A stretch of 64,000 nucleotides of DNA from assembly GCA_024137785.1 (NCBI GenBank), contig JAHRHZ010000087.1:5751818-5815817 (forward strand), given 5' to 3'. The DNA comes from Ginglymostoma cirratum (taxonomy: Eukaryota). This document shows, piece after piece, positions 1 through 62,100 of this stretch. The translations under genes were made by a program, and so were the position numbers. Below the pieces are notes generated by a model, which saw only the letters and a list, made by a program, of their open reading frames with translations, made no database searches and was not told the DNA's origin. Each line of letters starts with the position of its first letter. Within the stretch, counting starts at the first letter, position 1.

Positions 1-834
1 CAGTACAGTATCTTGAATGCGGGTGGAGAAATTAGAGAAACAAAAATCAAAACTGTGGGGATAGTGTGAGAGCATCACACGGTAAGGAGGAATTGTTGAG
101 AGTTATATTTAATATATCGAAATGGCAAAAGATCCTTTGCAAAAGCATTGTAAGACAAAATGATGTTGAACCACATGGGACTATGGGAAAGACTAAAAGA
201 TTAAACAAATAAAACTGAAGCAGCCAGAATTTTGATATATATGGAAGAAAACCAAGCACCATTCATAAAATTTATGGAAAGCACGTGTTTCCGATATTTA
301 TGATGGCTTCTGCAGAAAGCTAGTTAGATAAGACAGTAATGCATGTGTATTTAACAAAATTCATTTTCTATTTATTCATGTCAGCCACATTCTGAAACAC
401 AATTTCTATGTTATTTTCTTGGATACAGGCCCTAGTTACCAATGCTTTATCCATTTACTAATGATTGAGATAAAAGCTGAAAAACCACGCCTGACTATTT
501 ATCTATAGCTTTTTACTGCAGTTAAGAGCAGCTGGAATGGTCTGGAGTACATATATAGCATTTTAATGCTTTGAAACTTCTACAATTCAAAGAGAATATC
601 TTGAGCGTTAGCTGCAAACTGTAATGAGGAATAAATTAGAAATTGTGCCAAAACAGAGTGCTGGAGAAACTCAGAGATAAAAGGTACTGCAGATGCTGGA
701 GAATCCGAGATAACAAGCATGGGGCTGGATGAACACAGCAGGTCAAGCAGCATCATAGGAGCAGGAAAACTTGACGTTTCGGGCCTAAACCCTTCATCAG
801 AAATGATGATCATTTCTGAAGAAGGGTTTAGGCC

Positions 835-1234
835 NNNNNNNNNNNNNNNNNNNNNNNNNNNNNNNNNNNNNNNNNNNNNNNNNNNNNNNNNNNNNNNNNN
901 NNNNNNNNNNNNNNNNNNNNNNNNNNNNNNNNNNNNNNNNNNNNNNNNNNNNNNNNNNNNNNNNNNNNNNNNNNNNNNNNNNNNNNNNNNNNNNNNNNNN
1001 NNNNNNNNNNNNNNNNNNNNNNNNNNNNNNNNNNNNNNNNNNNNNNNNNNNNNNNNNNNNNNNNNNNNNNNNNNNNNNNNNNNNNNNNNNNNNNNNNNNN
1101 NNNNNNNNNNNNNNNNNNNNNNNNNNNNNNNNNNNNNNNNNNNNNNNNNNNNNNNNNNNNNNNNNNNNNNNNNNNNNNNNNNNNNNNNNNNNNNNNNNNN
1201 NNNNNNNNNNNNNNNNNNNNNNNNNNNNNNNNNN
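835..1234. other. Assembly gap (400 N)
   Basis: Run of N. All three gaps have the same length, which suggests a placeholder size. Confidence 0.97.
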
Positions 1235-1237
1235 ATC

Positions 1238-1273
1238 ATTTCTGATGAAGGGTTTAGGCCCGAAACGTCAAGT
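1238..1273 (+). ncRNA. Minimal type I hammerhead ribozyme motif (PLE family A)
   Basis: ATTT-CTGATGA-A-GGG(TTTAGG)CCC-GAAACGTC-AAGT: core CUGAUGA/GAAA, stem II GGG/CCC, stem I ATTT/AAGT, and palindromic ACGT in place of stem III. Confidence 0.7.
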
Positions 1274-2682
1274 TTTCCTGCTCCTATGATGCTGCTTGAC
1301 CTGCTGTGTTCATCCAGCCCCATGCTTGTTATGCTGGAGAAACTCAGCAGATCTGGTAGCATCTGAGGAGAGAGAAATGTGTTTCAATCCAGTGTGACTC
1401 TTCTTTGAAACTGTTCTAAGTAGAAGTGCCTTTTGACATCAATAGGCCAAAGATGGAAAGATTTTTATTTGAAAAAAATGAACAAAAGTAGCACAGAAAA
1501 TAGTGGAAATCTGAAACAAAAATAAAAATGCTTAAAAACACTTCGTGGATTGGGTGGCATTCGCAATGAGGAAATCTGCGATGCTTCACACATAACCACT
1601 GCTTCATACTGGAAGATATGATAGAAAACAAACTTCTAAGAATGGGCAGAGTGAGGATTAGTGGATGAGGAGTGATTGAGGTCTGAAAATGATAAAATCA
1701 ATGTCAAGGCCAAATGGATGCGAAGTACCTCTTAGAAAGGTGGTACCATTCATCAAACTTGTACTGAGATTCGCTAGAGAATTGTAAAAGATCAAGGACA
1801 AACTGTTAAAATGGAAGCGTGTTGGAGAATTGAAATGACAAAAGACTGCAACCAGAGGGTCATGCACAGAGGCTGAACAAAGATGTGCACCAAAGTGATC
1901 ACTTACTCTCAACTTAGTTTCCTCTTCATTGGGAGACCACACTGTGAGTAACACATACAGTAAACTGGGTTGAAAGAAGTATTAATAAATTGCTGTTCAT
2001 ACGAGGGGGTAGCTTGGTAAGTTGTGGAAATTTATTGATTATGAGGAATAGCTGGAGATGGGCCAAGTAAATAGAAGGGTCGAATTCTTCAGCAAATTTA
2101 ATAAAATTCTTCAGAATTCAATCATTGAAAAATTGAAAAAGGTGTGATATGTGTTAGTATTTTACTTGAGTTACTGTTGTTTTGTTTTTAGTTATCATGA
2201 CCCTTAGTCCAAGCCATTTAGTGATTAATTTTGCAGGCCTTTTGATGTGTCTGAAAACTCTGGTCTGACTTCACCACGTGTAAAGGTACAGAATGAGTCT
2301 GAGGGTGAAACATTGGGGTATTTGTATAATTTCTCGAAAATCTAGACTGTTGTCAGATGAAGGATGTCTGAATACATCGACAGTGCAATCAAATTGGCCT
2401 GTGTTGTCCTTGCTCTTTTCAGCTGGCTGACATTGGGAAATTTGATAGGTTTATCTTCCAGGTACAGTTGTCCTATTTGAGATCTCTCCATCAGGAAATT
2501 GCAATACTAGTGTGGGTCTTACATGTTCTTGAAGTTGTTGAACTGTAAGGAAAACAGCCAATTTAGACATGTATTAGGCTTCATTGTTTAAATTGATGGA
2601 AGTCTCACTACCAGTTTGTGCATAATTTTTATTTTAATTCTTCAGCTAAAAAAATTCAGATAACTTGAAGTTTAATTTCCAG

Positions 2683-3230
2683 GGTGTCTGGAATACTGTG
2701 TCCAGTTCTGGTTGGCCAGTTAAAGGAATAGTATTATTAAGCTGGAGACGGTTCAGGAGAGCTTTACAAGGATGTTGCTGGGTCTGGAAGGTTTGAGTTA
2801 TAAAGAAAGGCTGGATTGGCTGGGAATTGTCACTGGAGCATTGGAGGTTGAGAGGCAACCTTATAGAAGTTTATAAAGTAATGAGAGATATTGATAAAGT
2901 TAATGGTAGTTGTCTTTTCCCTAGGATGGGGGACTTCAAGAGTAGAAGGCACATTTTTCAAGTGAGAGGAGAGATTTTAAAAAAGACATAAAGGACAAAT
3001 TTTTCACATAAACGGTGGTTCGCGTGTGGGATGAACTTCCTGAGGAAGTAGTGGATGTGGGTACAATTACAACGTTTAAAAGACATTTGAATATGTACAT
3101 GAATAGGAAAGGTTTGGAGTGATATGGGCCAGGAGCGGGCAGGCGGGACTAGTTTAGTTTGGGATTATGTTCAGCATGGACTGAGTGGACGGAAGGGTCT
3201 GTTTCTGTCCTGTATGACTCTATGACTATA
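2683..3230 (+). mobile_element. CR1 LINE 3' fragment
   Basis: Encodes a decayed LEYCVQFW...RLRGNLIEVYK. The 3' UTR ends in the short tandem tail tatgactctatgactata. Confidence 0.85.
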
Positions 3231-3935: not shown

Positions 3936-4849
3936 CAATTGGTAATGAGCACCCACTAAGTACCAAGGAATTGCAAGGTCCAGAGTCTGAGAGGGAGAAG
4001 TCAATGTCTCAGCCTAGAGCAGCGGAATCAAGAGATGACCTCCAAGTGTAGCTCACGGCCAGTCAGGAAATATTGTCCATTTCAGTACAGTAGGGTCAAA
4101 TAAAGTCAATCATACTGGACACCTGGGTCCAAGTTTTGTCATCATCAGGGCTAGTTTGATGAAAAAAATGCTGAAATTGGTGATCTTGACCAAAATGAAC
4201 AGGCTTAATTGCCTGGTAAGATTGCAATTCAAGAAGGCAGCATCCAACAACTCAAGGCTGGTGCCCAAAGGCAAATCCAGCTGATAAAGAGCGTGTTGGG
4301 TAGAGAGAGAGATATTACTGTGCTGTCATGATTTGCAGTCACTGAAGCTGGAAGTGCTATTGACAGATGAATGTCAATTGGAGAACATCCGCTTTGCTCG
4401 CAAGCTGATGTTTTTCTTCAGCCTTGTTTCAGTGCCCAGCTAATTCAACTATCTGACCAGACCCTTCCATTCCTCCATGTCAGCTTTGAAAGCTGCTGCA
4501 TCATCTTGTGAGGCCTCACTTTGACTAATATAACGGAGCTAACATTTTCCAAATAAGATGACTATTGCACAGTAACAGTTGATCCATTCTGCTTGATTTC
4601 CAATCCAATGTACTTAAAAGACTCAGAAGCCTGACTTTCAATTTGAATTCAGCTTTAAACCAATTTATGACAACGTTTTCAAAATTATTGCTTCCAATCC
4701 ATGAGAAAACTCATCTGCATGCATTATAAAGATGCCTAAAAGCTGTCCGTCATGATGCCAGTAAAGTATAGCAATGTCTACTTTTAACTGAAGGCAGCTT
4801 AATTTTTATAAGACAGAGCTTATTGATAAGTATCAAATTCAAGACCCCT

Positions 4850-5800
4850 CATTTAGACCATATACCCACTTATTTAACTTCCTCTGTGTCCCTACTACTT
4901 GTGGTCTCTCTTCTGAAGGACAAAGAAATACCTCCCTGTTGATCTGATATCTTTATAGAAATGCAGTTTTAATATTGATTTAATTCTTAAGCATCTGTGT
5001 CGAACAAAACCAAAAAAAATCGAAATTGATTTTTTCTCTCTTGGTGGAACTTATTCTGATATCTTGGTTACCCAAGTTTTTTTCCTCAACTTTGTGCCAG
5101 TAGTCTTGCTTTGATCTTGTATGTTCCATGATGGGATACCTTTTTTTTCCATGCATGTCCATCTATGTGGTGGGACTGGTTATATCTGGCATCTCTGTGT
5201 ATACTTCCAATTCTCTCCAGCTTTGTTCATTTGTTTGTTTATCAAGAATATTTTACCTTTTCTTCAAGTTTGTTCATCACCACTAAGACGTCCAAATCAC
5301 ATGGTTTTCTGCTCAAGTTAGTATTCCTGATTTGTACTGTACTTCTTTTATCCTTGTTAAACTGTGCCCTGTCTCTCATTTTCTCACTGCTATTGTCTAA
5401 TCTTTCTCTTCTATTAATGGGATTTGTTTCAATAGTTTTTGGACTCTTTCTTAGCACATGCTCATTCCCAGAGCTTACATTGAAGTTTCCTGCATTCCAT
5501 CTTTGTACTTCATGTTCCCAATCCATGGACCTAGCCTCATCCTCTACATTCATCCATTTTATATTTTCCAGTGGCTTTCCCTACTTAAAATGATTGCTCT
5601 TCTCTGTTGACTAGCCCCATCCGATTTTTATTTGACTTCAGTGCCTGCTTCTGATAGTTGTCCTTACCAACTGAAATGTCAATCAATTTCAGCCCGAGCA
5701 TTTCTGGGATTCCCTCACTTGTTGTAAATCCCAAATTCTCTTCATTTTTCAATTTTCAATCGCGTTTCTGTCCTCATTTCTATCAGTTATAGTTCTCTTT
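4850..5800 (-). mobile_element. Highly decayed CR1-like LINE remnant
   Basis: The minus-strand peptide CDLDVLVVMNKL resembles the RDLGVxVDxKL motif, and the strand is purine-rich. Weak evidence. Confidence 0.4.
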
Positions 5801-7315: not shown

Positions 7316-8558
7316 ATTACTGTATTCCACTGTTTTGGTAGCCCCTGTGGGAAAAATATTTCAACATATGAGGATTGTTTAGAGGCGAATTATTGTGGGG
7401 AATTTCTGCAGAATGACTTTGCTTGGAATTCTGCCCTGGGGAAGGGTCCATTTTTATATGTAAGTGAATACAGCATAAAACTGGTTTTGTTTAAGTAAAA
7501 AAAAAACTCTTATGATTTTGAATTCTATTAGATTTTTGCAGGTAAATAAATAAATAATGAAAGAAATATACTCTGTACAAATAATTTAGTTGCATGCTGT
7601 TCGTCAGTCTATGCAGTGTGAGTTCAAATTTAGCCTCTTTCTAGTCAATTGTAGCATTGATGGGTTACTTCTAGGTTTACACAGAACAACACCCATTAAT
7701 TTGCTGGGAATATTCAATTACCAACTGAAATCAATGACAGGTTTGGAGCTGCCATGTCATATATACAAGCAAAATCTGTTTCCGATGTCTGGAAACTGCG
7801 GACACAAAGGGTGGGAGTTTTAAATGGAAAATCCCATCCTTTTTTTGTTAAAACTTCTATATATTTTATTACCAAACAATTATTAGCCAGGAATGCATAT
7901 TTGCATTAAACCTATTAATTGCATCTTCCCCATTGGTATTGCTTACTGTGCTACTGAATTGTACAGGTCAGGAAGGTGACAGGTCTGATGGGCCACCAAT
8001 GTTGGGTTAATTGACCTCAGTTGGAGTGGTAATAACCTGTGAGAGTGCACCAGGAGCTGGAGGAACTGGAAGAAGTAAAATTAGATGAAGCTCATTTTAT
8101 GGACCAGATCAGACCCCCTCAAAATATTTTGGGAAGATAGCCTAGACTCTAACATCATCTTATTTCTAAAGGCAAATGTGAAATGCCTGTTCCAGATGCG
8201 ATGCAACTGGGCAAACTACTCAATGTTAAGCAATACACAATTGATTTAAACAGTGTAGTTAAAATACAATCAAAGAGGAATTCAGAATAACAACCATATT
8301 GGAAACTTAACAGAATAAGAGATACAGTAACATTACAAATTAACTGTTTCAATATAGTAATATCCCATAAACACACTCGTTGGCAAAAAAGGAAAATTCA
8401 GACACCGATTCTTACATGCAGTTCTCCAATCCAGGAGGGATAAAACATCAAGAGAAAGTTTGGAGACAGTAGCAGCCAGGCAACATTTATTTAATCTTCC
8501 AACTCTTTCGAGACTCCAAATAGCTTCTGATCCTACTGAAAAAACCAAAACACAGAAA

Positions 8559-8791
8559 ATAAAAACCGAACGAACGGTGGGTGCTGTAAATCAGGAACAA
8601 AAACAGAAGTTGCTGGAAAACACCAGCAGGTCTGGCAGCATCTGTGAAGAAAAAAAATCAGAGGTAACGTTTCGGGTCTGGTGACCCTTCCTCAGAACTG
8701 AAGGGTCACCAGACTCGAAACGTTAACTCTGATTTTTTCTTCACGGGCGCTGCCAGACTTGCTGAGCTTTTCCAGCAACTTTGTTTTTGCT
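8559..8791. mobile_element. PLE family B 3' fragment, inverted pair (hairpin)
   Basis: 8559-8700 and 8701-8791 are reverse complements over ~95 bp. An imperfect TSD, CCAAAAC(A/C)CAGAAA, lies at 8545-8558 and 8792-8805. The terminus is the same as that of the long PLE at 51085. Confidence 0.85.
8662..8699 (-). ncRNA. Minimal hammerhead motif (PLE family B)
   Basis: The minus strand reads AGTT-CTGAGGA-A-GGGTC(ACCA)GACCC-GAAACGTT-ACCT, with one stem I mismatch in this copy. Confidence 0.62.
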
Positions 8792-9054
8792 CCAAAACCC
8801 AGAAATGTGGATCTGTGAGCGCTGGCCACATCCATTCAGGATGCATATTAAAAACAAAGGCCTCCCTAGCTGTTCATGTTACCTCAAACTGCTCAGCACC
8901 TCTGCTTTATAACCTCTGTTCAACAAAAGACAGGACAAAATAACCTTTTTAAACTCACAGTATTGTCTCACTCCTATTCCTGGCTTTCAACCCCAGATGA
9001 CAGCCAGGTTTACGAAGTAAGCAACATTCATCCCCTTAGAAGGTCAAGGAATAA

Positions 9055-9230: not shown

Positions 9231-10539
9231 TAGGGAGCTATATATCTCTGTCTCCTTCTCTCATGTGTGAAATATTTTCAAAATTAGGTCTCTGAAAACT
9301 GTTGAATTCATATCACAGTATCATCTTTGAGGTGAGGTGAAAATTGGACTGTGAAGGAAGAAATGATTAATGTTTATGAATACTTCTGTACGTGGTAACT
9401 GCATAAAGTCCCTTCTATTATTACAAGATTTATATGTCCATTTATGACCTGTAACCAACTATAACACTTACCCCCTCTGCATTTTCTCTACCTATTCAGT
9501 GACTTTATTCGTTTTTCGCTTTATTCATTTCAATGGCCTTTCCTGCAAACCTCAATCTTCTCCTGTTTTGGCTTTACTCCATCATGAAATCGTAGCTTTT
9601 TGCAATCTTCTCAAATCTATTATGATTTTTCTTGTGTTACAACAGCTATTTTTTTGTAAATTTATGCTTATAACACCATTTCTACCAACTGGAAGTGTTA
9701 GGTCAAACTTTTGGGGATAATTTTAACCCCCAAGAAGAAGTGTTTTTGGGTTGGGTAGAATGTAATTTTTTTTAATATTTCAAACTCAAACTCAACTCTC
9801 CTGAGATCCTGCCCATTCACATTTCAATGAAGATTGAGGAGGAAAGAAGTAGCTGGATGACTAACTTTGCTCTCAGAAGATAGTTCACTCCTTTTAAATG
9901 TTTTAATGAGGTTGTATGCTTCAGTTTTGTTTCTAATCCAACTTTTTAATAATAGCCATTTGGATTTCCTATACTTTGGAAAATGTAGCAACTGACTCAA
10001 GGTGATGACATTTGCATTTGAAACTGGTGAGAGCTTTTCTAGCACTGCTTAAGGGCCAGGAAGAGCAAGAGTGTTGCTTGCACTATTCCCTCACCTTGGC
10101 CCACATCCCTTATGGAGTCACTCAATTCTCTTACCTCCCTGAATCTTTCCAGTCCCTCATCATCACTGGTTCTCGGAGTTCTGCAACAATCCCATCCCAC
10201 CAACACTGGCAAAATACCCCTTCCACAGCACCCCCAATCTTCTGTCCCTCCTCTCTGTGCTCCTGGTTATGGCCTGGTTCCAGAGGTCAACAGATCTGAA
10301 AGCCAGCTGACTATTAAAAATCGTAATCTGATTCCACCATTAAATTTGGCATGATCTGAGGAAAACCTGCTCTTCCTGATGCTAAAACTATTAACATCAG
10401 GGTCTCTATTTCTGCTTATTTGTACTCAACATACCTTTTCTTCTAAATAAAAGCTTGGACTCATACAATATTCCATTATTGCTTAGACAGTAAACATCTG
10501 AGCAGTGACATTCTTTCCTCCATTTTACCAATTTAACAT

Positions 10540-10727
10540 CAGAAGTCACATGATACCAGGCTATAGTCCAGCAGGTTTATTTGAAATCACAAGCTTTCAG
10601 AGTGCTGTTCCTTTGTCAGGTGAAGAGGAGGGGTGTTTCCCTCTGTTTCACCTGTTGGACTATAACCTGGTGTCACTGTGATTTCTAACTTTGTCCACCC
10701 CAGTCCAACACCAGCATCCCCACATCA
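10540..10727. mobile_element. PLE-type family E 3' fragment, inverted pair with a decayed hammerhead
   Basis: accaggctatagtccagcaggt (~10555-10576) is mirrored by acctgttggactataacctggt (~10650-10671). The minus strand at 10587-10623 reads TCAC-CTGACAA-AGGAACAGCACTCT-GAAAGCTT-GTGA. Confidence 0.7.
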
Positions 10728-13481: not shown

Positions 13482-13484
<3 letters not shown>

Positions 13485-15756: not shown

Positions 15757-15886
15757 GAGATAAAAGGTACTGCAGATGCTGGAGAATCCGAGATAACAAG
15801 CATGGGGCTGGATGAACACAGCAGGTCAAGCAGCATCATAGGAGCAGAAAAACTTGACGTTTCGGGCCTAAACCCTTCATCAGAAA
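15757..15886 (-). mobile_element. PLE family A solo 3' fragment with hammerhead motif (15852-15886)
   Basis: Near-identical to 674-803. A 14-bp TSD, GGTAAATTGGGGAG, lies at 15746-15759 and 15899-15912. Confidence 0.88.
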
Positions 15887-19210: not shown

Positions 19211-19424
19211 TATAACACAGTGTGGAGCTGGAGGAACACAGCAGGTCAGGCAGCATCAGAGGAGCAGGAAAGTTGACTTTTCAGGTCGGCACCCTTCCTC
19301 TGAAGAAGGGTACTGACCCGAAATGTCAACTTTCCTGCTCCTCTGATGCTGCCTGACCTGCTGTGTTCCTCCAGTTCCACACTGTGTTATCTCTGACTCC
19401 AGCATCGGCAGTTCTTACTATCTC
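19211..19424. mobile_element. PLE family C 3' fragment, near-perfect inverted pair with a hammerhead motif at ~19300-19332 (+)
   Basis: The arms are ~19212-19297 and ~19305-19391. The motif reads CTGAAGA-A-GGGT(ACTG)ACCC-GAAATGTC. TSD ATGTTCCA lies at 19200-19207 and 19427-19434. Confidence 0.85.
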
Positions 19425-20939
19425 TGATGTTCCAAAGAATGTTGCCTTGGGGAAGGGAGCAGAGAGGAAACTATCTTTGCGATCAGGCTTCATGCTTCTC
19501 TACAAATCACACAATATCACAGAGGCAGAAGTTTCGTCTGGTCAGCAGAGAAAGCTGCTGCTTGGCTTTGCAAACTATATTGCTGGATATGGGAAAAAAG
19601 CAGTAGTTATTCAAAGAGACACATCCTGCCGCCATTGTAGGATTCCACAAAATGTAGCCCAGTGTGTTAAGAAGGGAAAAGTCATTGGGACAGGCTTTAC
19701 TGCTGATGGTAGATTTAGGAACATCTGCACAACTAAGTGAAACACGTGGGAGTAACTATTCAAAATTACAACTCCACAAAATTGAGAAAGGCAAACTAAT
19801 TGGAAGTAGGCAGTAACGAGAACTGTTTTTCTATAAGGATTACCCCAGAGTGTGGATACTGAATAAATTTAAAGAGGAGATAGACCTTTACTTAGTAACA
19901 ATTTGAAGAGTTATTGGGACCGAGCAGCAAAGTGAAGTTGAAGCTGGGATGTGATCAACCATGATCGTATTAATTGGTAAGGTAGGGGCTGAATTGTCTG
20001 CTCCTGTTCCTAGTTCTTATAAACCAGCCTCAACTAGTTGGGTCAAATGGCCTTTTGTATGCTGTAAATTCAAAGTAATATAGGATTTAATGGTAAAATA
20101 TGTGCATTTGTAGAATTCAAACATTTCATAAACCCAATAAAACACAACATGGCATTCATAAACTAGGAGTTTTACAACAAATGATAGTGTATATGCAAAC
20201 ATGTTGCTGTACATGTTGGCAGTTGACTGCAGAATATGTACATTTTGATTTTTTTTCGGCAATATACAAAGAATGAGAGGTTTGAAGCTCCAGTCTGATT
20301 GAAAGATGATACAGGTAGGCCACCACCTGAGCTGGGCCTCTAATTCCAATGATGATTCAAAACTATTGAGTATGTGTGGGTCGTTTATTGTGCCAAGTGT
20401 ACGTCATATTTTGGGGCAAGCCCAAGCTGCTTTAGCTAATATAAACTGAGGTATTTCGTCATCTTTTGCACACTGTTTGCAGTGGCTTTGTTCCTCTTTT
20501 TCCACAATCTCTGCTTTATCTCTTCCTGGTCTCCACTCAGTCTGTGTCCTGATCTGAATTCCTTTTCACAATTATTTTTTCCCCTCTGAAGTTGATATTA
20601 AATGACAGTTGCAAATTCTATTTAAATGTTGCAAGTGAATTTCTTCCAGTTCAAAGTGGGAGACACACTTCTCCCAGTGCCAGTTTCAAATCACAAATTT
20701 TTGCAATTGGCTGTGAATGGACGTTTTGGAATTTTCGCTGCTGAACTGAATGGAATATATGAAGGAGATAAAAGGTACTGCAGATGCTGGAGAATCCGAG
20801 ATAACAAGCATGGGGCTGGATGAACACAGCAGGTCAAGCAGCATCATAGGAGCAGGAAAACTTGACGTTTCGGGCCTAAACCCTTCATCAGAAATGGGGG
20901 AGGGGAAGAGGGTTCTGAAATAAATAGGGAGAGAGGGGG

Positions 20940-21339: not shown

Positions 21340-21442
21340 CTTCGACTTGTCTGCCTCCTCTCCACCTATCCTCTCCTCTATCCATCCTCTATCCGCCTCC
21401 CCCTCTCTCCCTATTTATTTCAGAACCCTCTTCCCCTCCCCC

Positions 21443-21478
21443 ATTTCTGATGAAGGGTTTAGGCCCGAAACGTCAAGT
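21443..21478 (+). ncRNA. Minimal type I hammerhead motif (family A)
   Basis: Identical to 1238-1273. Predicted cleavage follows GUC at 21474. Confidence 0.7.
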
Positions 21479-22278
21479 TTTCCTGCTCCTATGATGCTGC
21501 TTGACCTGCTGTGTTCATCCAGCCCCATGCTTGTTATCTCGGAATATATGAAGTGCAATTTTTTATGACAGGAAAATTTTAACTTTATCTGTGACACGAT
21601 GACATACCTGCTTTTCTCTAAATCAATTACCCAATTTATTTTGGCGTTCGGAGCAAAAATAAAACAAAGCAAAAATGTTTCTTGATGCTCAACTGCTAAT
21701 TTCACTTCGGTTCCTTGAATTAGAATGCTGTCAGTTCTGTTAGAACATATTTTTATAAATGTTTTCACCAAAAAGAATTCAGTAAATCAGATGTCTCTAG
21801 AAAATTGGCAAAAAGAGATTTGTATCTTAAAGAAAGCTGACCCTTTGAACAGCCCCGATAGTATGGCTTTAACCAGCAATAGGGTATGATGTTCCAAATA
21901 AGCTGTAAGGCTTTGAAAAATGCTTCACTTGTATTGCAGGATAAATGCAAAGGCAGATAATTACAATTCGGCAGAGTAGCAGGCTCAGTAATTTCTTAAG
22001 GAGTCCACAGGCCCAAGTATTTATTTTCATACTTTTTATTTATCCATTTTCAGAGGATGAGATCCATTACCTAATGCAGGTGATTCACAGCCCATTATTT
22101 AACAAGTAGAGGCAAAAAAAGTAAAGGGACATTTTATTAAGTAACGCAATACTATTAGTATTGGGTGTCATCTGGAGTTTTAAATTCTAATAGACAAAAT
22201 TAATGTGAATGTACAGGATTATATACATATATTCAAGAAGCAATGAGGTGAAATATTTAAAACATATGTATGTATCCT

Positions 22279-22408
22279 TAATAAAAACCGAAAGAACTGC
22301 GGATGCTGTAAATCAGGAACAAAAACAAAGCTGCTGGAAAAGCCCAGCATCTGGGAAGGTAAAAAACAGAGTTAACATTTCGGGTCCAGTGACCCTTCCT
22401 CAGAACTG
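22279..22408 (-). mobile_element. PLE family B solo 3' fragment with hammerhead motif (22370-22407)
   Basis: The minus strand reads AGTT-CTGAGGA-A-GGGTC(ACTG)GACCC-GAAATGTT-AACT. An imperfect flanking repeat is atgtatgtatcctt / atatatatatcctt. Confidence 0.82.
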
Positions 22409-24414
22409 ATATATATATCCTTGCCTGCCCTCGCTCCATATTAGATTGCCTTTTTTTTTGCAAGGTCTGGAGGAGCCTTTCTCTTACTCATTTTGCACAA
22501 AATTATAACCTTTCAAAGATTATCGCCTTCTTCCCTTTCAAAATATGTGTAATTACTATATCAGTCAACTTCACTCATTGCGATTCCAGAGAAATTCAGA
22601 ACTAAAACTCATTCAACTTTTCCCCATCCCTCTGGCACCTGCCCTTACAATGTGAGAAAACATTTTGCAAAAATATTAACCACCTATGTTTACAAATCTG
22701 CAGATGATTCACTTTTTCTGGTGTAGCTTATAAAATCTACCAAAAATATTGTAAATTCAAATTAGCTCATTGATGGGCTCACCACCTAACTTCTGTGACC
22801 TCTTGCATGAAACATGGGCCCCACATGAACTTGCGTCAATGAACTAGGAAACGCTGACTGTTATGGCAACATGGTAGTACGTTTATGTTGATTCTCAGTA
22901 GAAAATCTAGATCAGCAAATGGGTACATCAGTATGGCAACTGTCTGTAAAAATTTATTAGGGTTCATATACTATTAAAGTATTATGCCTTATGCTGTCTA
23001 TTGGCAGAGCTACTGGATTTAACATCACTGTAACTGCTTCATGAACGAAAGACTCACTCATGAGCTCTCTTTCTATAAGAATCGTGTGCAGAAATCAGAG
23101 TTCCATTGACTCATTGAATAGAACGTTTACATTTCTTTGTTTTAACAATCTCAGAAATGGGCATTTGAAATGCATTGCATGCAAAGGACTTCAGATTCAC
23201 ACAAGGATTTGTGTGATTTGTCTCCAATCAACCAAATTATTTCTCCGAATTTTCAAAGGCTTTTTGTCTCTGAATCTGAGAGAGAGGGGAACTGGAGAGT
23301 GAACAACCTTTGCCAAGTTTTCTTTGAATCAAGGACCAGGGGATCTATGAGGTTTACTTGCCTATCTCTTCTACTTTAGATGTCCAACATGATGCAGAGA
23401 AACAACCGGCATAGAGTGGACCCAATCATGTGACTAGATAGAGTGGTGCATTATGTATTTTAGCTACTTGTGAAGCATCAGCACCATTTGAAATGCTGAA
23501 GCACTTCAGGTATTGCTGAGATCTTGTTCCATGTGTGATACATGGGTAAGTTTATGACACCTTCCGACTAACTTGGAACATCATTGAAAATGGCTATGGA
23601 AAATTCTGAAAGTCATTAGATCCAAATTCATTTGTCATTGTTATAGCCTGAGTGAGGTCATTGGCATTTTCTTCTTCTCTGGCTTTCTTTTGAGATTCTC
23701 TCTCTTTGCGTCTCAATGTCACCCACCCATCCAATCTTTGTACTTCCTCACCTGCTTCTCCTCTCAGTTTCTTCCTCAGTTGTTCCCAGGAGAAGACTGT
23801 CTAAGAAAGCATGGCAGTAGGAATCCAAAGAGTTGAGAGGAAAGTAGTGTAGAAATTAAAGCAGCAATGAGCATAGTGCTACAAATGCTGTCTTTTAAAA
23901 TAAAGTGCCTGTGAATGTGTTGGTATAACCATGTTCAGCATATCAATATGAGGAACATCTGTAATGCAGAAATATTTTGTTTGAAATTTGAATATCTAAT
24001 TAGTTGTCTGTAATGTTCTGGACGCTTGATGTTTAGAAGAAAATGAACTTTTTCCATAAACCTTCGATTACCAAGATCTTTCGAAATGTTAAAATGTTTT
24101 AAATATGTCGCATTTAACACAGTCACATTTACTTTAAACTGCAAAAATGTCTACTTCCTTATGTATAAACAAACATAGAGAAAACTTCATCTCTCACCAT
24201 TATCTGCCCTAACACTTCTAGAAGACCCAGAACAATGGTATTATTCCATGATGCTGCACTGCCAGCAGTGTAACCCTAATCTTCTGACCTTGCTTCCCCT
24301 GGGCCTGGTGTTAGATGAAATAGGGGTCCAATGAATGTGTAAGCAGTTTCAGCTCATGGACTGGGGGGGAATGGTAGCACTGGGGAGTCATCACCTTCAA
24401 TTACTGTACCTCAA

Positions 24415-30092: not shown

Positions 30093-30222
30093 TTTCTGAT
30101 GAAGGGTTTAGGCCCGAAACGTCAAGTTTTCCTGCTCCTATGATGCTGCTTGACCTGCTGTGTTCATCCAGCCCCATGCTTGTTATCTCGGATTCTCCAG
30201 CATCTGCAGTACCTTTTATCTC
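30093..30222 (+). mobile_element. PLE family A solo 3' fragment starting at its hammerhead motif (30093-30127)
   Basis: Identical to the other A copies. A 13-bp TSD, TAGCTAAGAGATT, lies at 30081-30093 and 30225-30237. Confidence 0.9.
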
Positions 30223-31317
30223 TATAGCTAAGAGATTAATAGGCATTTAAGAAATTCTGGAAAATTTATGCATATGTGTAGGCATTTAATAATTTTTTTT
30301 GAGTCAATAATTTCTAATTTAATGATATATCTGGCCAGATAGCAACAGAATGGTTTTGTCTGGCCGAGAGATTCAGATTGATCGATTTATTGGCAGTGTC
30401 CAAAGTTTGGAATGTTCAGTATGCTATTTTTCCTTGGTGGTTTTAATAGTGAAACAAAAGAAATCTATTTATTTACATTGTATTTCTAAAAACAAAGCCA
30501 GCCTTTTGTCTCTGATGCACTTCAGGATGACCAATTTGTAGCAATTACACTAGAAATGCTCAACCCTTGCTTAGCTTTATATCAGTATATTATTCCAAAA
30601 TGATTTAGAAATGATATTGGCACAAATCTTCAACTCTGGGTTGGATTCCTTATTCCCAGATCAGACAAAAGGTTACCAGCTTCCTTGCCAGAAATTTTTA
30701 GTCCTAACTTCCCGAAACAGCATCTATCGCAAAAGACGCAGTGAAACAAACCACACAGACAGCCTTAGGGGTGTGTTTGCACAGAAACCACTTCCCTTTT
30801 TTTGATGTAATATCTGCCATATTTAACTAAATATCCTGCAGGTTAAAATATCCCAAATCCTCTTGAACAATGACTGAAAAAATGTGTAAGGAAAATGGGT
30901 GAGGAGATAAGGCACCAAGTAAGTGATTGAGAAATGAATTGGGAGTCAATTTGAGTGAATGTGAGGTCAATTTTATAGTTTTCCAGAGGTTAGAGTAAAT
31001 TTTAATCCATTTAGATTTCCTAGGTAATTATTAAGATGAGCGAGTCGGAACCCAGCAAAGTCTCTGACTCTAACTCTGAATTGGGAATGTTTTTAGAGAG
31101 TTACAGACTCTAAGGAATTGTCTGTTGGAAGTGTTAAATTCCTGGTTAATTGTTGGATCAGTGCGATAATCCCTCTGAGAGGTTGTGAAGTACATCTTTT
31201 ACAATATATCCAGTCTCTAACTAGACCTGAAGATCTGGGCCGTTATTTCATGCACGTGTACATGTATATCCAGAATGCCTCATCACTCATGACTGCACTA
31301 CAGTACTAAATTAATAC

Positions 31318-36124: not shown

Positions 36125-36413
36125 TATCTCCTCCCTACCCCCCTACCTACACTCACCTTTACTGGCTCCATCCCCGCCTCTTCGACTTGTCTGCCTCCTC
36201 TCCACCTATCCTCTCCTCTATCCATCCTCTATCCGCCTCCCCCTCTCTCCCTATTTATTTCAGAACCCTCTTCCCCTCCCCCATTTCTGATGAAGGGTTT
36301 AGGCCCGAAACGTCAAGTTTTCCTGCTCCTATGATGCTGCTTGACCTGCTGTGTTCATCCAGCTCCATGCTTGTTATCTCGGATTCTCCAGCATCTGCAG
36401 TACCTTTTATCTC
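36125..36413 (+). mobile_element. PLE family A solo 3' fragment (longest A copy) with hammerhead motif at 36283-36318
   Basis: A pyrimidine-rich leader matches 21340-21445. A 10-bp TSD, TCAAAGAAGT, lies at 36115-36124 and 36412-36421. Confidence 0.9.
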
Positions 36414-38709: not shown

Positions 38710-38968
38710 GATTTACATCTACCATTAACACCTATTCTTCATGGATGTCACTTCTCTCCTCCCATTAGTGTACTCCCTTTGTCTTTTGCTTAAGAACCCA
38801 CATCATCTGTTGCATTTACTCCTCCTCCTCCTTTCACAATAGCATAAAAAAACACCATTTTCCATCCCTTTCAGTCCTGAAGAAGAGTAATTCGGGACTG
38901 AACGTTAACTCTGTTTTCTCTTCACGGATGCTGCCAGACCTGCTGAGTTTCTCCAGCATTTTTGTTCA
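38710..38968 (+). mobile_element. Older PLE 3' fragment with a decayed hammerhead
   Basis: Reads cagtcCTGAAGAagagtaattcgggactGAACGTTaactctg...gatgctgccagacctgctgag. Confidence 0.7.
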
Positions 38969-51084: not shown

Positions 51085-53262
51085 AAAATAAAAACCAAAA
51101 GAACTGCAGACGCTGTAAATCAAACACAAACAGAAATTGCTGGAAAAGCTCAGCAGGTCTGGTAGAATCTGTGATGAGAAATCAGAGTTAACATTTCAGG
51201 TCGAGTGACCCTTCCACAGAACTTATGGTAGCTAGGAAAACGTCGGTTATATGCAGAAGACAGGGTGGGGGGAGGTGTAAGGAATAAACAATAGGTGGGG
51301 ATGGAGCCCAAAGAGAAGAACAGTTGGACAGACAAAGAAGTAGATAATGATCTGCAGGAGGGTGAATAGCTACTAATGGGTACTGTTAGTTACTAACAAT
51401 AGGTAGTGTGTAATATAAGACTATGTGATAACAAGCCCTGATATGTGGGAGTAGGGGTAAAGGACATAGGAGAGCTCAAGCCCTAAAATCATTACACTCA
51501 ATATTGAGTCTAGAAAGCTACAGGGTCCCCAAGTGGAAAATGAGGTGTTGTTCTTCCAGCTTGCACTGAGCTTCGCTGGAGCACTGCAGCAAGCCTGAGA
51601 CAGAGATGTTGGCCAGGGAATAAGATGGTGTGTTGAAGTGTCAGGCAACTGAAAACTCAGGATCTTTTTTGCGAACAGAACATAGGTGGTCTGGAAGTGG
51701 TCACCCAGTCTGTGCTTCATTACTCCAATGTAGAGGAGACTACATTGTAGGCAGCAAATGCAGTAGACTAGATTGTGGGAAATGAAGGTAAAGTGCTGCA
51801 TCACCTGGCAGGTATGTTTCGGCCCCTGGATACTGAGGAGGGAGAAAGTAAACAGACAGATTTGGCTGCAGGGGAAGGTGCCATGACGCTGTAGGTGGTT
51901 GTAGGGAGTAAAGGAAGAGTGGATCAGGGTGTCAAGGGAATGGTCCCTGTGGGAGGCTGACAAGGGAGGGGAGGGGAATTTGTGTCTGGTGGTGGCATCT
52001 CACTGGAGGTGGTGGAAATGGCAGTTAATGATCCTCTGGATGTGGATGCTGGTGGGATGGTAGGTGAGAATAAGGGGCACCCTATCGCTGTTGTGGGAGG
52101 GAAGAGAGGGGGTGAGGGCTGAAGTGCTGGGTGAGACCCGGCTGAGGGTTCTGTCAACAATGGTGCTGGTGTATCCTCAGATGAGGAAGAAGGTGGACAT
52201 TTTGGAGGCTGCCTTGTCAAAGTTAGCATCATCAGAACAGATGAGACGGAGGAACTGCAGAATGGAATAGAGTCTTTACAGGAGGCATGCTGTGAGAATG
52301 TATGGTCAAGGTAGCTGTGGGAATCAGTGTGTTTATATGAATATTGGTGGCCAGTCAGTCCCCAGAAATGGAAACAGAAATGTTGAGGAATGTCGATATA
52401 TTGGAGAAAGAGTTGTGGGTGGTGACTGGAATAGGACTGGAACAAGGAATGTTCCTTGCACCCCACAGAGACAGGCATAACTAGGGCCCATGTGGGTACC
52501 CATGGCCACCCCTCTGATCAGAAGAGAATGAGAGAAGTTAAAAGAAGTGTTTTTCAGGCTGAGGATGGGCTTGGTCAGGCGGAGGAGGGTGGTGGTGGGT
52601 GGGGACAGTTCAGACCTTTATTCCAAGAAGAGGCGGAGAGCCCTAAGACCATGCTGGTGGGGGATGGAAGTGTAAAGGAATTGCTCGTCCATGATAAAGA
52701 GGAGGTGGCTAGAGACTGCAAACTGGAAATTCTGAAACTGGTGTAAATTGTTAGAAGAGTCACAGATGTAAGAGGGAAGCAACTGGACCAGGGGAGAAAA
52801 GACCGAGTCATGATAGGAAGAGATGAGTTCTGTGGGGCAGGCGCAGGCAGAAGCAATGGCTCTGCGTGGACAGTCCTGTTTGTGGATTTTGGGAAGGAGG
52901 TAGAAGCGAGCTGTGCAGGGTTTGGGAACTATCAACTTGGAGGCGGTGGAGGGAAGATCACCAGATGAAATGAGGTTGGTGACCGTAGTTGACACAATGG
53001 CCTGATGTTCCATCATAGGATCATGGCCCAGGGGAGATAGGAGATATTTGAGAGCTGGTGCTCAGCCTCTGTGATGTAGAGGTCATTCCACCAGACAACA
53101 ATAGCACCACCCTTATCAGCAGGCTTAATTACAAAGTCAGGGTTGGATCTGAGAATGTGGAGTGCAGTCAGTTCCTGGGAGGATAGTTTGGAATGGTTAA
53201 GAGGGACAGAGAAATTGAGGCGACCTATGTCACATAGACAGTTCTCAATGAGCAGGGAGAGT
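51085..53262 (-). mobile_element. Penelope-like retrotransposon (family B parent), 5'-truncated, with decayed RT, GIY-YIG endonuclease and 3' UTR
   Basis: RT peptide ARFYLLPKIHK...FIMDEQFLYTSIPH and GIY-YIG peptide NLVYCICCLQCSLLYIGVMKHRLGDHF. The 3' terminus (51085-51222) matches the family B short copies. TSD GCAGATTAAA(A)TATGT lies at 51069-51084 and 53263-53277. Confidence 0.93.
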
Positions 53263-54206
53263 GCAGATTAAATATGTTTCAGTTTCAGGCTGCAGCTCAG
53301 GGCATAGCAGTTCAAGGTCCTTTGGCATCCTTTCACAGGAGTGTGCTAGGTCAATGTCTATAATCTAAATTTTTTATAAAATTACTTGGAATTAATTGGA
53401 TAATGTGCTGTTTTATAAGGGGACGCGTGTCTTGCCATGTAATGAAAAAAAATGGCATTGTAGTGATTACATGTGTTTGTGACAAGTTATTGCAGTAGAA
53501 CTGGCTTTGATATCTTATGTTTGTCAGTTGTTTGATGCTACGAACCACTTAGAAGCCACGTTGTATATAAACTGGAGTAGTTCTTTTTAAATCCTTTCTG
53601 GAATAGTATGTATGATCCTGTGATGAGAAGTTATCTCCAAAATTAGAGCAAAGTGTATAAAACTATATCCTTCAGAATGAGTATCATCAATCTGATTGAG
53701 AAACTAGCCCTGAAATATTATCAGCTTTGACAGAGCAGTGAGTCAACAGATTAGAACTTCAGGTGGACTAAATAGAAAAGAGAAAGCCTGTCATTGGATG
53801 GAGAACGATTGAGAGTTGAAAGGAGATCCTACAGACCAGATTTCCAATGCGACTGTTGAGTCCTGTAATAAGAAGGAAGCAGAGTGGCATTCAGGAAAAT
53901 TGAGTCCAAATGGCTTCTCAGGGAATGTATTTTGTGACTGTATGGACCAATGGGAATCTGAGGGACTTGTGTAAACCTTTTTTTCAATGATTTGTTTGAA
54001 GAATGTAGATGATTGACTTTGGTCATTTATGCATTGCCTTGACAAAGTGCTGGGTTTTCACCTTTTGGAACCACTACAATCCTGGGGTTACCTGGGTGTT
54101 AGGTAATGAATTCCAGCACATTGACCCAGCAACAATGAAAGAAAAAGCTGGTGAATGTTTATCACAGTGATATATCACATGTAGTTCCATGATATTACTG
54201 CTCATT

Positions 54207-54990: not shown

Positions 54991-55506
54991 GTATTCTTTG
55001 TGGTAATGTGACTAGGAAGTGCTTTTGAAGTAGGTTTATTAGTTTTTTCGCTATATATTGGTGATAAATGAGATGATTGTTGAATTCACCTGGGGAAACA
55101 CTGATCATTTGAACTGTCATGTCCTGAAATGGTGTTGAGTTTTTTCAGATCATCAATGTCGCTTGTATTATTTTTCCACTGTGAAGAGCCTATTCGTTTC
55201 AGTGTCGGGAAGCTGTGATTTTTTTTTTCATGGTTGCCTTCATACCCAAATGTAAAGGGGCTGATTTCTTCTCTGTCTGTGTGGAAACTTCGGGGTTGTT
55301 GCTTGGCAGTATAAAATGGAGGGGGCATGGGAGGCCATTCAGGTAGATGATGAATTTTAATCCCACTCCTGATGTGAGCATTGTGGAGGGGCTTTCAGAG
55401 ATCAGAAGGTGAGTCCTTAATGGATTATCACTACCCTCAGTCCTATTCTGTGACTGCAATGATGTAGCTGGTCCAGCTGGGTTCCAACAAACTCAATTCT
55501 TGGACA

Positions 55507-56059
55507 CAATAAGGACTGCAGATGCCGGAAGCCAGAGTCAATAGGTGTGAGGCTGGAAAAGCACAGCAGAGCAGACAGCATCCAAGGAGCAGGTAAGTCA
55601 ACGTTTTGGGCAGAAACNNNNNNNNNNNNNNNNNNNNNNNNNNNNNNNNNNNNNNNNNNNNNNNNNNNNNNNNNNNNNNNNNNNNNNNNNNNNNNNNNNN
55701 NNNNNNNNNNNNNNNNNNNNNNNNNNNNNNNNNNNNNNNNNNNNNNNNNNNNNNNNNNNNNNNNNNNNNNNNNNNNNNNNNNNNNNNNNNNNNNNNNNNN
55801 NNNNNNNNNNNNNNNNNNNNNNNNNNNNNNNNNNNNNNNNNNNNNNNNNNNNNNNNNNNNNNNNNNNNNNNNNNNNNNNNNNNNNNNNNNNNNNNNNNNN
55901 NNNNNNNNNNNNNNNNNNNNNNNNNNNNNNNNNNNNNNNNNNNNNNNNNNNNNNNNNNNNNNNNNNNNNNNNNNNNNNNNNNNNNNNNNNNNNNNNNNNN
56001 NNNNNNNNNNNNNNNNNATGCTGTCTGCTCTGCTGTGCTTTTCCAGCCTCACACCTACA
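55507..56059. mobile_element. PLE-type family D 3' fragment, inverted pair spanning a gap
   Basis: taggtgtgaggctggaaaagcacagcagagcagacagcat is mirrored at 56018-56058. A 16-bp TSD, TCAATTCTT(G/A)GACACA, lies at 55493-55508 and 56065-56080. The hammerhead region is mostly inside the gap. Confidence 0.8.
55618..56017. other. Assembly gap (400 N)
   Basis: Run of N. Confidence 0.97.
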
Positions 56060-57003
56060 GATTTTCAATTCTTAGACACACAGCTCCATTTATAACGAAA
56101 GTGAAATCTAATTGCTGTGTGTTCTTTTTAAATTAATATTTTGCCCTGTCTGAATATCATATTATATGGTTGAAATAACCTTTTTAAGACAATGGCACGC
56201 TGTACGGTCGCTAATTTATTGACTGTTTATTGGGCAGGAGACAAGGGTTATTGCAGCTGTGCACAAGTCTGATTGCTATCCAAAGAACTCTGGTGTAAAT
56301 CAAGGAAATCCTATCCATAATTTTTTTTCCATTTGCCTTGCTTTCTACACCCCTTTCCTGCCCCATCCCCTTTCCCCGCCCCCTCCAAAAAAAAGGAAAA
56401 GACATTCTCACAGCAATTGACTCTTAGCTGATATCAGCTATCTTCAGTGCAGCAAGTGAATTCAGTGTAAGGTGTACTGGCTAGGCAACTCATTAGGTAA
56501 ACATAACGATGTGAACCATTATGATAATTAGCATTATTTAGTTACTTGTATTCCATTTGTGAATTAATATGCAAACAAGAAGAACAAAATAGTATTTTGC
56601 AATTTGTTTCCAGTTGTCTCGTTCTCACGGAATAAGTAGAATACTACAAAGTGTTGGTGACATTTTATGCATGTCAAAGAATATTTTAAAATCAGAACTC
56701 TGTCATTCATACAATAGGATCTTTTTCGGCTGCAATATATAATCTCTAATAAGAGCCAGCTGCCCGTTCCATATGTTGGGGAATTCAGTATAAATGAGTT
56801 GATTCCTTATCCAATCAAATCCTTGTGCTTGTTTACCAAACATCCAATGGTCTTGACCAAACCTACCTTTTCCACCTCCCTCAGCTTCACATTTCTAAAT
56901 GCGCTGTTCACTCGTTTGATTTATGACAGCTTTGTATAAACTTCTGTTAATGTTGCCTTTGCCAGTTGGGGCTGGCCTTCTCCAAGTACCCAAGCCTGTT
57001 CTG

Positions 57004-57092
57004 AAAACAAAAAAATGCTGGAAATCACAGTGAGTCAGGCAGCATTGGTGGAGTCTACTGTTTTGAGTCTAACTAATTCTTTATCAGAGCTG
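57004..57092 (-). mobile_element. Old PLE 3' terminal fragment
   Basis: aaaacaaaaaatgctggaaatcacagtgagtcaggcagcat resembles the termini at 650 and 8597. Confidence 0.55.
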
Positions 57093-57104
57093 CTCAGTAT
57101 CAAA

Positions 57105-61254: not shown

Positions 61255-61402
61255 GCCTCTAAATAGTCCAATTATAGGTTGAAGTCACACTTCAGCACCT
61301 AAACACACAAATTAAGGCTGATACTCTATTATGTTACTGAAGGAGTGCTGTATTGTCAGACATTTTGTCTTTAAATGAAATAATGGCGCTATTTTGAAGA
61401 GG
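61255..61402 (+). mobile_element. Deu-domain SINE 5' fragment
   Basis: Reads aaggctgatactct...tactgaaggagtgctgtattgtcaga...ggcgctattttgaaga. Confidence 0.55.
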
Positions 61403-61405
61403 CGT

Positions 61406-61726
61406 GGGAGGCAATGCCTACTGGTATTATTGCTGGACTATTAATCTGGAAAGTCAGTTAATGTTCTGGGGACCCGAGTTCAAATTCTGCCATGGCAGAT
61501 GGCGGAATTTGAATTCAATAAAGAATCTGGAATTAAGAGTCTAATGATGACCATGGAACTATTGTCAATTGTTGGAAAAACCCAATTGGTTCGCCTGTGA
61601 CCTTTAGGGAAGGAAACTGCCATCCTTACCTGGTCTAGCCTCCAGACACACAGCAATGTAGTTGACTCTTAACTGCCCTCTGGGCAATAAATGCTGGCCT
61701 AACCAGAAATGCCCATATCGCGTGAG
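61406..61726 (+). mobile_element. SINE family 2, near full length
   Basis: A tRNA-like head with B-box-like gagttcaaattc, body ctttagggaaggaaactgcc, and tail gggcaataaatgctggcc...gcccatatc shared with LINE family 2. Confidence 0.78.
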
Positions 61727-61960
61727 ACATCTTTTTTAAAAAAAGATTTGGGTGCAGGACTCTAAATTCATTCATCCAAGATTAATATCTGTTGTGAAGA
61801 TTTTGAACAGATTCCTGAAAATGCTACTTGTCATGTCCTACTAATCATGGGACAGATTTTGTCTTCACCTTGTCTCTCAACTAATTTCCTACTGTTGGCT
61901 CCAATACCGTGTGCTTTTCCTAATATTTTCTCAATGGCCAAAATGTGGTGGAATTTCAGT

Positions 61961-62100
61961 GAATGAGGAAGGGTCACCATACCCAAAACGTTAACTCTGA
62001 TATTTTTCTTCACAGATGCTGCCAGACCTGCTGAGCTTTTCCAACAACTTCTGTTTTTGTTCCTGATTTACAGCATGCGCAGTTCTTTTGGTTTTTTTTA
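61961..62100 (+). mobile_element. PLE family B solo 3' fragment with a mutated hammerhead, just upstream of the exon
   Basis: Reads aatgaggaagggtcaccatacccaaaacgttaactctg...gttcctgatttacagcatgcgcagttcttttggttttt. Confidence 0.85.

Follow-up and report, generated by a model that had tools for sequence, protein, structure and literature searches.

The window, that is the whole 64-kb stretch of Ginglymostoma cirratum DNA analysed here, contains short repeat copies of several families and one broken Penelope-like element (PLE). Family A forms two head-to-head pairs. The first comprises a pLTR copy with a 33-nt tail and an intact hammerhead motif at 769-804 (671..805, minus strand; recognised by the motif descriptor and by comparison) and a tailless partner (807..1332, plus strand), which starts with 807-834, continues through a run of N (835-1234) and carries its motif at 1238-1273; a 16-bp target duplication, identified by direct reading of the sequence, surrounds the pair, which is inserted in an older pLTR. 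The second comprises a copy with a tail, 3' UTR and an intact motif at 20860-20895 (20765..20939, minus strand) and a tailless partner with an intact motif at 21443-21478 and a predicted cut after 21474 (21340..21543, plus strand), bounded by a 13-bp target duplication. Two solo copies begin at the edge of stem I and have a tail, one on the minus strand (15757..15886) with a target duplication of 12 bp and one on the plus strand (30093..30223) with one of about 11 bp, and a further plus-strand copy (36125..36413) has about 160 nt of 3' UTR, an intact motif at 36283-36318 and a tail.

Family B is represented by a tailed copy (8558..8704, minus strand; motif 8662-8699, 3' strand of stem I mutated) with an inverted partner truncated within the 5' core (8700..8790, plus strand), a solo copy in which the C of the palindrome has decayed to T (22280..22410, minus strand; motif 22370-22407), a decayed B-type copy (38842..38966, plus strand) and a tailed copy truncated within the 5' core (61964..62099, plus strand). 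The broken PLE is a 5'-truncated element of the family B type on the minus strand (51087..53272), with remnants of reverse transcriptase (RT) and GIY-YIG endonuclease, a 3' UTR and a decayed motif at 51186-51223. Family E contributes a copy on the minus strand (10539..10625; motif 10587-10623) and an inverted partner without a motif (10650-10733, plus strand), family C a fold-back pair (19212..19428), and the related family D an inverted pair around a run of N with a partial motif (55500..56060). A heavily decayed related copy has the approximate bounds 57005..57092 (minus strand). Among these, the copies at 807-834(+), 8700(+), 19301(-), 38876(+), 51219(-), 55617(-), ~57087(-) and 61963(+), all partial or decayed, are absent from an earlier note on this DNA.

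A descriptor that demanded the full minimal type I hammerhead core and at least 3 bp in stem I and in stem II matched eight copies in the window, seven of family A and one of family B (22370), compared to a mean of 0.01 and a maximum of 1 in 100 shuffles. The core elements CUGANGA, GAAA and UH are present in eight window copies, and their columns are invariant in the alignment. The unpaired residue that separates position 9 from 10.1 is A in families A, B, C, D and E and U in family G, and the pair G10.1-C11.1 is G-C in eight and G-U in two of ten copies. Stem III lacks loop III and consists of a palindrome (15.1-16.1/15.2-16.2), ACGU in 143 of 164 copies of cluster A and AGCU in family E, while the remaining cluster A palindromes mostly reflect CpG decay. 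The motifs lie at the coordinates named in the earlier note, which had also proposed the 4-nt palindromic stem III, suited to pairing in a dimer, and a cut after the C at 21474; this position is the predicted scissile C of the copy at 21443-21478. An Rfam scan of the window matched no hammerhead family at E<=1, probably because stem III is absent. At this threshold it yielded eight weak miRNA or scaRNA matches, all below gathering; the miRNA matches at 19237-19365 are the family C fold-back pair. The sequence evidence supports the earlier reading in part: the repeats are minimal type I hammerhead motifs in the pLTRs of PLEs, with predicted and putatively dimer-dependent cleavage.

Families A and B lie downstream of Penelope-like RT/GIY-YIG ORFs. 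In the fetched stretches a motif on the same strand followed the ORF, judged by eye, at 15 of 15 long ORF loci of family A and three of five of family B. The distance from the stop codon of an RT plus GIY-YIG ORF to the motif is about 250 nt. In tandem or full-length copies a motif is also found in front of the ORF, with the AUG 139 nt after the cut site. One long copy (L151) has an intact single frame of 1,049 codons encoding RT (RVT_1, E 4.7e-6, below the Pfam cut-off) and then a C-terminal GIY-YIG domain (E 5.6e-5), and its translation contains a zinc finger-like CxxxxCxxC linker between the two. In the window, Pfam matched none of the three broken frames at 51421-53061, and they were identified by comparison with intact copies (over 107 aa they share 50% identity with family A's intact endonuclease region). 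The PLE location of families C and D is suggested by pLTR similarity only. The earlier note had counted four families, the independence of which was overstated: family C is 82-83% identical to family A, and the downstream pLTR is common to A, B and C, while family E indeed represents a separate lineage. Family A is present in at least 20,320 exact copies in the genome, and a downstream-anchored family A pattern has 56,607 genome matches. The elements share with the endonuclease-bearing PLEs of the Neptune clade, as far as the accessible part of the source describes them (PMC8557442), the RT, a CX2-5CxxC linker, the C-terminal GIY-YIG domain, a pLTR with an inverted 5'-truncated copy, also seen in the window pairs, and a one-sided tail of 30-40 bp; here only one arm is tailed in 11 of 12 head-to-head pairs. 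Based on these features they are likely members of that clade, although the linker is common to Neptune and Nematis.

The earlier note had further described compensatory stem differences. For ten hand-picked copies of six families, chosen for intactness and representing about three independent lineages, 93.8% of 80 cells were paired, seven of eight pairs and 29 cells were changed on both sides, and the covariation score was 0.989, compared to 0.305 in shuffles, which ignore the relatedness of the copies, and at most 0.164 in slid controls. With one copy per family 23 of 24 cells were paired in stem I and likewise in stem II, and 4 and 24 of 720 arm permutations, respectively, were as good. Compensation across families is supported, but the commonest form of family C (a 26-copy cluster) has a non-compensatory U-C mismatch at the third pair of helix I. 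Details of individual copies also differ from the earlier description. The 5' strand of stem I of family A, given as ATTT, is TTTT with 3 bp in the copies at 30092 and 15852, and the AACT of family B is ACCT in the copy at 8662, where stem I is broken. The family C motif at 19300 exists, but it lies on an inversion junction (~19301) within the 5' core, and both arms lack stem I. The core of the family E copy is mutated, as had been claimed, with G8 changed and an imperfect stem II. In folding predictions the lowest-energy monomer of family A joins the two core halves (-9.3 kcal/mol, versus -3.4 for the hammerhead fold), and the lowest-energy dimer exchanges stem II instead of pairing the palindromes; five stretches gave unremarkable folding z-scores, between -1.7 and 0.8.

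Motif and covariation are confirmed but largely known, and in this respect the contribution is a new taxon only. The extra nucleotide, the palindromic stem III, covariation across families and weak cleavage as dimers have been reported for PLE hammerheads of fish, lamprey, coelacanth, frog and reptile, and the motifs described there agree with those found here also in the core, the G10.1-C11.1 pair, a short helix I, several co-varying families per genome and mostly lone or opposite-strand copies, as far as the accessible part of that paper extends (Cervera and De la Peña, 2014; PMC4209133). Its Table S1 and Figure S3 contain no cartilaginous fish, and the copy number of family A (>20,000 exact) exceeds the 4,000-9,000 reported in the part available. 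Dimer cleavage is reported for small PLE hammerheads whose stem III is palindromic and very short, as it is here (Lunse, Weinberg and Breaker, RNA Biol 14:1499, as cited in the part of PMC6765202 available).

The ends of the insertions matter more than the motif itself. Of 100 downstream-anchored family A copies, taken from the first contigs and not at random, nine were N-censored and 91 were used. Forty-one of them start at -34..-20 relative to the cut site, six at -19..-1, six at +1..+11, ten at -134..-35 and 28 beyond, which differs strongly from a uniform distribution (p 1.6e-25). Genome-wide, 3,987 copies start at -32, the first base of stem I, and 523 at the cut site (+1), compared to 163 at +3 and 175 at -5; the patterns exclude different letters, so these counts compare approximately. 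The letter before A(-32) is G in 66, A in 30 and T in 4 of the 100 matches listed (read by eye; 28% G expected, p 8e-15), and G in 31 of 45 stored copies. In many family A copies a T replaces A(-32) at the start (43 of 47 in that class). The genome search sets left 10 of 100 places and 10 of 40 matches out of the fetched sequences. Family B has the same edge: among 30 anchored copies, 24 retain the 5' core and none the upstream UTR. A splice acceptor behind this edge is unlikely, as many copies keep the AG. Copies of family G retain sequence upstream of stem I. On the other side, the insertion ends put the start of reverse transcription chiefly at 65-69 or 99-103 nt past the cut. The family A 5' ends rule out run-off at the cut site as the source of short copies, and they argue that most family A copies were made from RNA spanning the cut site, i.e. 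from uncut templates. An extra G marks capped full-length L1 insertions (accessible part of PMC11702581), and a G in front of a fixed 5' end is the mark that a capped start of transcription leaves. For family A, the capped RNA start is likely the base that opens stem I. The part of PMC4209133 available does not place the start there, and a literature search with partial coverage, which included sharks, retrieved no paper placing a capped start at stem I.

Could the accumulation of ends at stem I instead reflect stops of the reverse transcriptase or microhomology, caused by a C-rich UTR, fold-back self-priming and possibly an antisense template as proposed for rotifer PLEs? Such self-priming has been proposed for palindromes of this type (PMC3846280), inversion joints account for 16 of the 41 edge ends, a sub-peak at -23..-20 is compatible with a 3-nt microhomology, and the G excess is missing in family B (14 of 52 non-C letters, by eye; one of nine with plain flanks). 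However, in family A the excess persists in copies with plain flanks (12 of 18, p 9e-4), at three loci a target duplication of 6-7 nt ends one base before the G, families A and B share the edge despite different upstream sequences, and paired arms differ in their 3' ends while a single target duplication encloses the pair, so that we regard this explanation as unlikely. A rival explanation, which Cervera and De la Peña (2014) modelled and which takes up the dimer dependence of the earlier note, makes protein-free dimer cleavage the main processing step: two motifs would excise the element from transcripts of the read-through or tandem type, and the normal template would be the cut RNA, possibly as a circle. 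In its favour, core, extra nucleotide and palindrome are retained in all six families, two of ten long copies reaching the leader (L151 and L181) begin exactly at +1, starts at +1 are about three times as frequent as at +3 or -5, 35 of 41 plain-flank breakpoints between -8 and +8 lie after and six before the cut, and copies with 3' UTR upstream could derive from circles. Yet only about 1% of the anchored copies start at +1 (523 versus 56,607, from different patterns and hence approximate), of 30 such loci about 12 are plain-flanked, the majority of the rest being fold-back joints at a local palindrome, ends at +6 and +7 (13 and 19 of 92) are comparable to those at +1 (17), none of three new leader-reaching copies of a second sample starts at +1, and the same step would result if synthesis stalled where stem I begins to pair, at its base. 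We consider this model quite unlikely. The +1 excess is not proof of cleavage, because it is inflated by fold-back microhomology and by the differing excluded letters of the three patterns, and the genomic ends give weak hints of occasional cleavage.

A motif that no longer cuts and persists as a promoter or as a structure for protein binding is, in our view, very unlikely. The 5' strand of stem I overlaps the putative start and what we take to be an initiator-like motif, which favours this possibility, but a downstream promoter element is out of register by eye. Family C multiplied despite its stem I mismatch, while the two-sided changes elsewhere indicate RNA structure. The core varies less than loop II (0.8% versus 6.5% in family A, 4.3% versus 9.8% in family B), in alignments of the copies that extend to stem I (all but 29 of 141 and 48 of 136), the filter of which favours intact cores. 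The rates give no clear sign of selection on inserted copies: the core of family A is no less variable than the adjacent spacer (0.5%), and family B, with 8.3% variation downstream and 32% of CpG sites changed, mixes subfamilies. Naiad PLEs thrive without hammerheads (PMC8557442, in part), and catalytic mutants of the anole element do not block insertion in vitro, but the same anole hammerhead cuts, with rescue by C3/G8 exchange (PMC11167929, in part). The very high copy number and the target duplications might also suggest that the short copies are an independent non-autonomous family, a SINE or a non-LTR retrozyme replicating as a unit; such retrozymes originate from the pLTRs of PLEs, and one chondrichthyan genome contains them (bioRxiv 10.64898/2026.07.22.740005). 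This seems highly improbable, as the short copies match the full-length element's leader with 96-100% identity, some of them running into the ORF, and the window contains no tandem array of hammerhead units, a trait of these retrozymes.

We therefore favour, with fair confidence, the view that the repeats are pLTR pieces of endonuclease-bearing PLEs, that the motif with its co-varying stems probably cuts only weakly, as a palindrome-paired, protein-helped dimer, and that the majority of family A copies extend across the cut and start with the opening base of stem I, the putative capped RNA start. Transcription would start from an internal polymerase II promoter, at the A that is the first base of stem I and lies 32 nt ahead of the cut. 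Reverse transcription would begin inside the RNA, as the insertion ends indicate and by a mechanism borrowed from the anole element; starting in the leader, it would pass the uncut ribozyme and run off at the cap, and the abundant solo and head-to-head copies of 100-135 bp with the added G would arise in this way. Cleavage would be occasional or later and remove the 32-nt capped leader, or else free a unit-length RNA with a downstream copy as the dimer partner, and inserted copies would decay afterwards. A more specific version is tentative and perhaps doubtful: the hammerhead would be the first 36 nt of a capped mRNA with stem I as transcription start, the protein would prime in the leader and copy uncut RNA to the cap, and rare, protein-gated cleavage would remove the cap and turn a translatable mRNA into a unit-length template. 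If so, tens of thousands of insertion ends record both RNA forms.

The role of PLE hammerheads has been described as unclear (PMC8557442, in part). Should the RNA begin 32 nt ahead of the cut, freeing its 5' end from read-through transcripts would require no ribozyme, and decapping, 3' processing or circle formation would have to be the task of the motif. With intact ORFs and >56,000 copies, this young family is a ready system for testing this role.

The only purified vertebrate PLE system in the accessible part of the source is anole Poseidon (PAc, Anolis carolinensis; Frangieh, 2024; PMC11167929), the hammerhead of which requires the element's protein for activity and is not needed for insertion in vitro, with uncut RNA as the template. 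By analogy, the earlier reading of the candidate ribozymes as dimer-dependent may be incomplete, and protein help is likely a second need. As described there, PAc and the present families also share the pLTR hammerhead, two internal RT start sites giving the tail, extension of both strands, an uncut RNA template and no RNA-seq ends at the cut. With about 24% of one RNA-seq run (X21) read, the ends of the reads accumulated neither at -32 nor at the cut; the 42,057 and 35,228 placed reads were equal in both directions and about 90% continue into unlike sequence, and a second run (X22) gave 15 reads only. This signal looks like passive transcription of genomic copies, which carries no information on cleavage. 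The start codon of PAc lies at stem II, in contrast to its position 139 nt after the cut in the present families, the protein of which has the zinc finger-like linker. In D. virilis Penelope the promoter is internal and TATA-less, and an intron that begins 46 nt after the start site runs up to stem I; the overlap of start and stem I is thus not general.

A descriptor comprising the hammerhead core plus at least 3 bp each in stems I and II matched eight copies in the window, seven of family A and one of family B, compared to 0.01 per shuffle in 100 shuffles. An Rfam search of the window gave zero hammerhead matches. Motifs are present where the earlier note had placed them, but several of the copies that it cited as examples are damaged: stem I is broken in the copy at 8662, the copy at 19300 lacks stem I because it sits on an inversion joint, the family E copy of the window lacks G8, and the copies at 30092 and 15852 are altered, the 5' strand of stem I being TTTT. 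Eight more partial or decayed copies had been overlooked. The motif was already defined by Cervera and De la Pena (PMC4209133), and the accessible text of that paper names four hallmarks, i.e., families rich in compensatory changes, a nucleotide lying between position 9 and position 10.1, G10.1-C11.1, and the palindrome. Assignment to this known class, the minimal hammerheads of Penelope-like elements (PLEs), is nearly certain, and the motifs of G. cirratum are fresh members of it. The hosts listed in the same portion of the paper are fish, lamprey, coelacanth, frog and reptiles, with cartilaginous fish absent; one chondrichthyan is included in the available text of a 2026 preprint (bioRxiv 10.64898/2026.07.22.740005), and that of PMC6155905 contains nothing further on sharks.

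The covariation of the stems across families that the earlier note had described is real; it is carried by intact copies from about three independent lineages (A/B/C/D, E, and G, the last missing from the window and found elsewhere in the genome). From the stored loci 326 distinct intact-core copies were clustered, and ten copies were picked from six families. In these ten, 93.8% of 80 stem cells pair, both sides change in 7/8 stem pairs, and the covariation score is 0.989, versus 0.305 for shuffled and at most 0.164 for slid controls. With one copy per family, 4/720 permutations equaled stem I and 24/720 equaled stem II. The usual stem I of family C has a U-C mismatch. Variation in family A amounts to 6.5% in loop II, 3.8% in the 3' strand of stem I and 0.8% in the core, and family B differs by 4.3% in the core, 8.3% downstream and 32% at CpG sites, a pattern that fits constraint on the source elements followed by decay. 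In lineage G the extra nucleotide is U and stem II has 7 bp (L061:9223-9264, L086:2150-2281, L167:8107-8148, loci from the rest of the genome); several copies are preceded, about 50 nt upstream, by a TATA-like stretch rich in AT.

In the 4.36 Gb genome, exact matches number 20,320 for the family A motif, 56,607 for the 37-mer downstream of it and 15,029 for a family B 38-mer; backward controls gave 0 matches. The exact family A 36-mer occurs five times in the window, where the genome-wide total predicts about 0.3; the window is rich in this young family. Twenty genomic loci with long frames were selected, and the motif, scored by eye, lies downstream of the ORF in 15/15 of family A and 3/5 of family B. 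Locus L151 has an open frame of 1,049 codons with reverse transcriptase (RT), a CxxxxCxxC linker and GIY-YIG, and the carrier element agrees with the description of the Neptune clade in the accessible part of PMC8557442. In the window, remnants of RT and GIY-YIG survive in a broken family B-type element (51087-53272, minus strand), and the motif downstream of them is decayed.

Among 100 family A copies selected solely by a downstream anchor, 3' ends fall at two sites, with (49/100) or without a 33-nt tail. Head-to-head pairs have the tail on one arm in 11/12 cases, which is a known PLE signature (PMC8557442, PMC3846280, in the parts available), and according to the available text of Frangieh et al. 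(PMC11167929), on the PLE of Anolis carolinensis, such a tail arises from internal RT starts. Family A has more clusters of 3' ends within the ORF (L172-L200), near +465, +593 and +735 relative to the cut site; these are probably additional internal RT start sites. Target duplications of 11-16 bp surround pairs and solo copies of the window. An older pseudo-LTR (pLTR; 655-670 and 1333-1375) hosts an inserted family A pair, and PLE-into-PLE insertions were also seen in L081 and L230. Three runs of exactly 400 N (835-1234, 20940-21339, 55618-56017) each lie between inverted pLTR arms, as is common in the other genomic loci examined. Around the first run 26 letters repeat with one difference, so that 807-834 and 1235-1260 may be a single copy read twice.

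For family A it is fairly probable that a capped RNA starts at stem I, the first base of which, an A, lies at -32 from the predicted cut site. Of 91 uncensored copies 41 have their 5' end at -34..-20, six at -19..-1, six at +1..+11, ten at -134..-35 and 28 beyond. Whole-genome start counts are 3,987 at -32, 523 at +1, 163 at +3 and 175 at -5. G precedes A(-32) in 66/100 among the matches listed (by eye; 28% expected), in 31/45 stored copies, and in 12/18 copies with plain flanks; capped full-length L1 insertions bear an added G (PMC11702581, accessible part). Thirty copies anchored in the first 300 nt of the ORF comprise 11 starting at -34..-20, two at +1, five with upstream UTR, nine starting further in and three cut by N. 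Family B shares the stem I edge (5' core in 24/30, upstream UTR in 0/30), a G excess in front of its copies starting there was not found, and these are often preceded by a short C run, also with plain flanks (L433-L458, genome list). About 12/20 family E copies start near stem I (by eye); family G copies lack such starts.

Cleavage would leave ends at +1, and two of ten long copies begin exactly there; plain-flank breakpoints (35 after the cut site versus 6 before) are likewise a weak hint of cleavage. Against it, the +1 class represents about 1% of copies, half of them fold-back joints, +6 and +7 ends are as common as +1 in the breakpoint set, and predicted folds prefer inactive forms. RNA-seq revealed no end pile-up, with reads swamped by passive copies. 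In the accessible text of PMC4209133 no monomer cleavage was seen and dimer cleavage was low, and that of Frangieh et al. (PMC11167929) reports for the anole hammerhead that it cleaves only with protein present and that RNA left uncleaved serves as the template. The ribozyme studied here probably acts infrequently, cutting as a dimer with the assistance of protein.

Most likely, the RNA start at stem I would be driven by an internal promoter, as demonstrated for D. virilis Penelope (PMC2377424, available part). Priming by the element protein would take place either within the leader or in the downstream pLTR: the former, with run-off at the cap, would give the short copies, solo or head-to-head, and the latter the long ones. 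It is speculative that the hammerhead serves as a switch, with cap removal turning mRNA into unit-length template. Within the family A core, an AUG that cleavage would remove opens a frame of 14 codons (21449-21494, plus strand) upstream of the main ORF.

The window also harbors a LINE-type reverse transcriptase fragment (40339-41127, minus strand; RVT_1, E 2.5e-12), with related pieces at 2687-3223 and elsewhere, a degenerate tandem repeat of eight copies of an approximately 40-nt unit (46190-46500), and a dispersed SINE-like family in both orientations, 81-88% alike (24416-24738, 32014-32346, 39331-39494, 48202-48512, 63112-63413).
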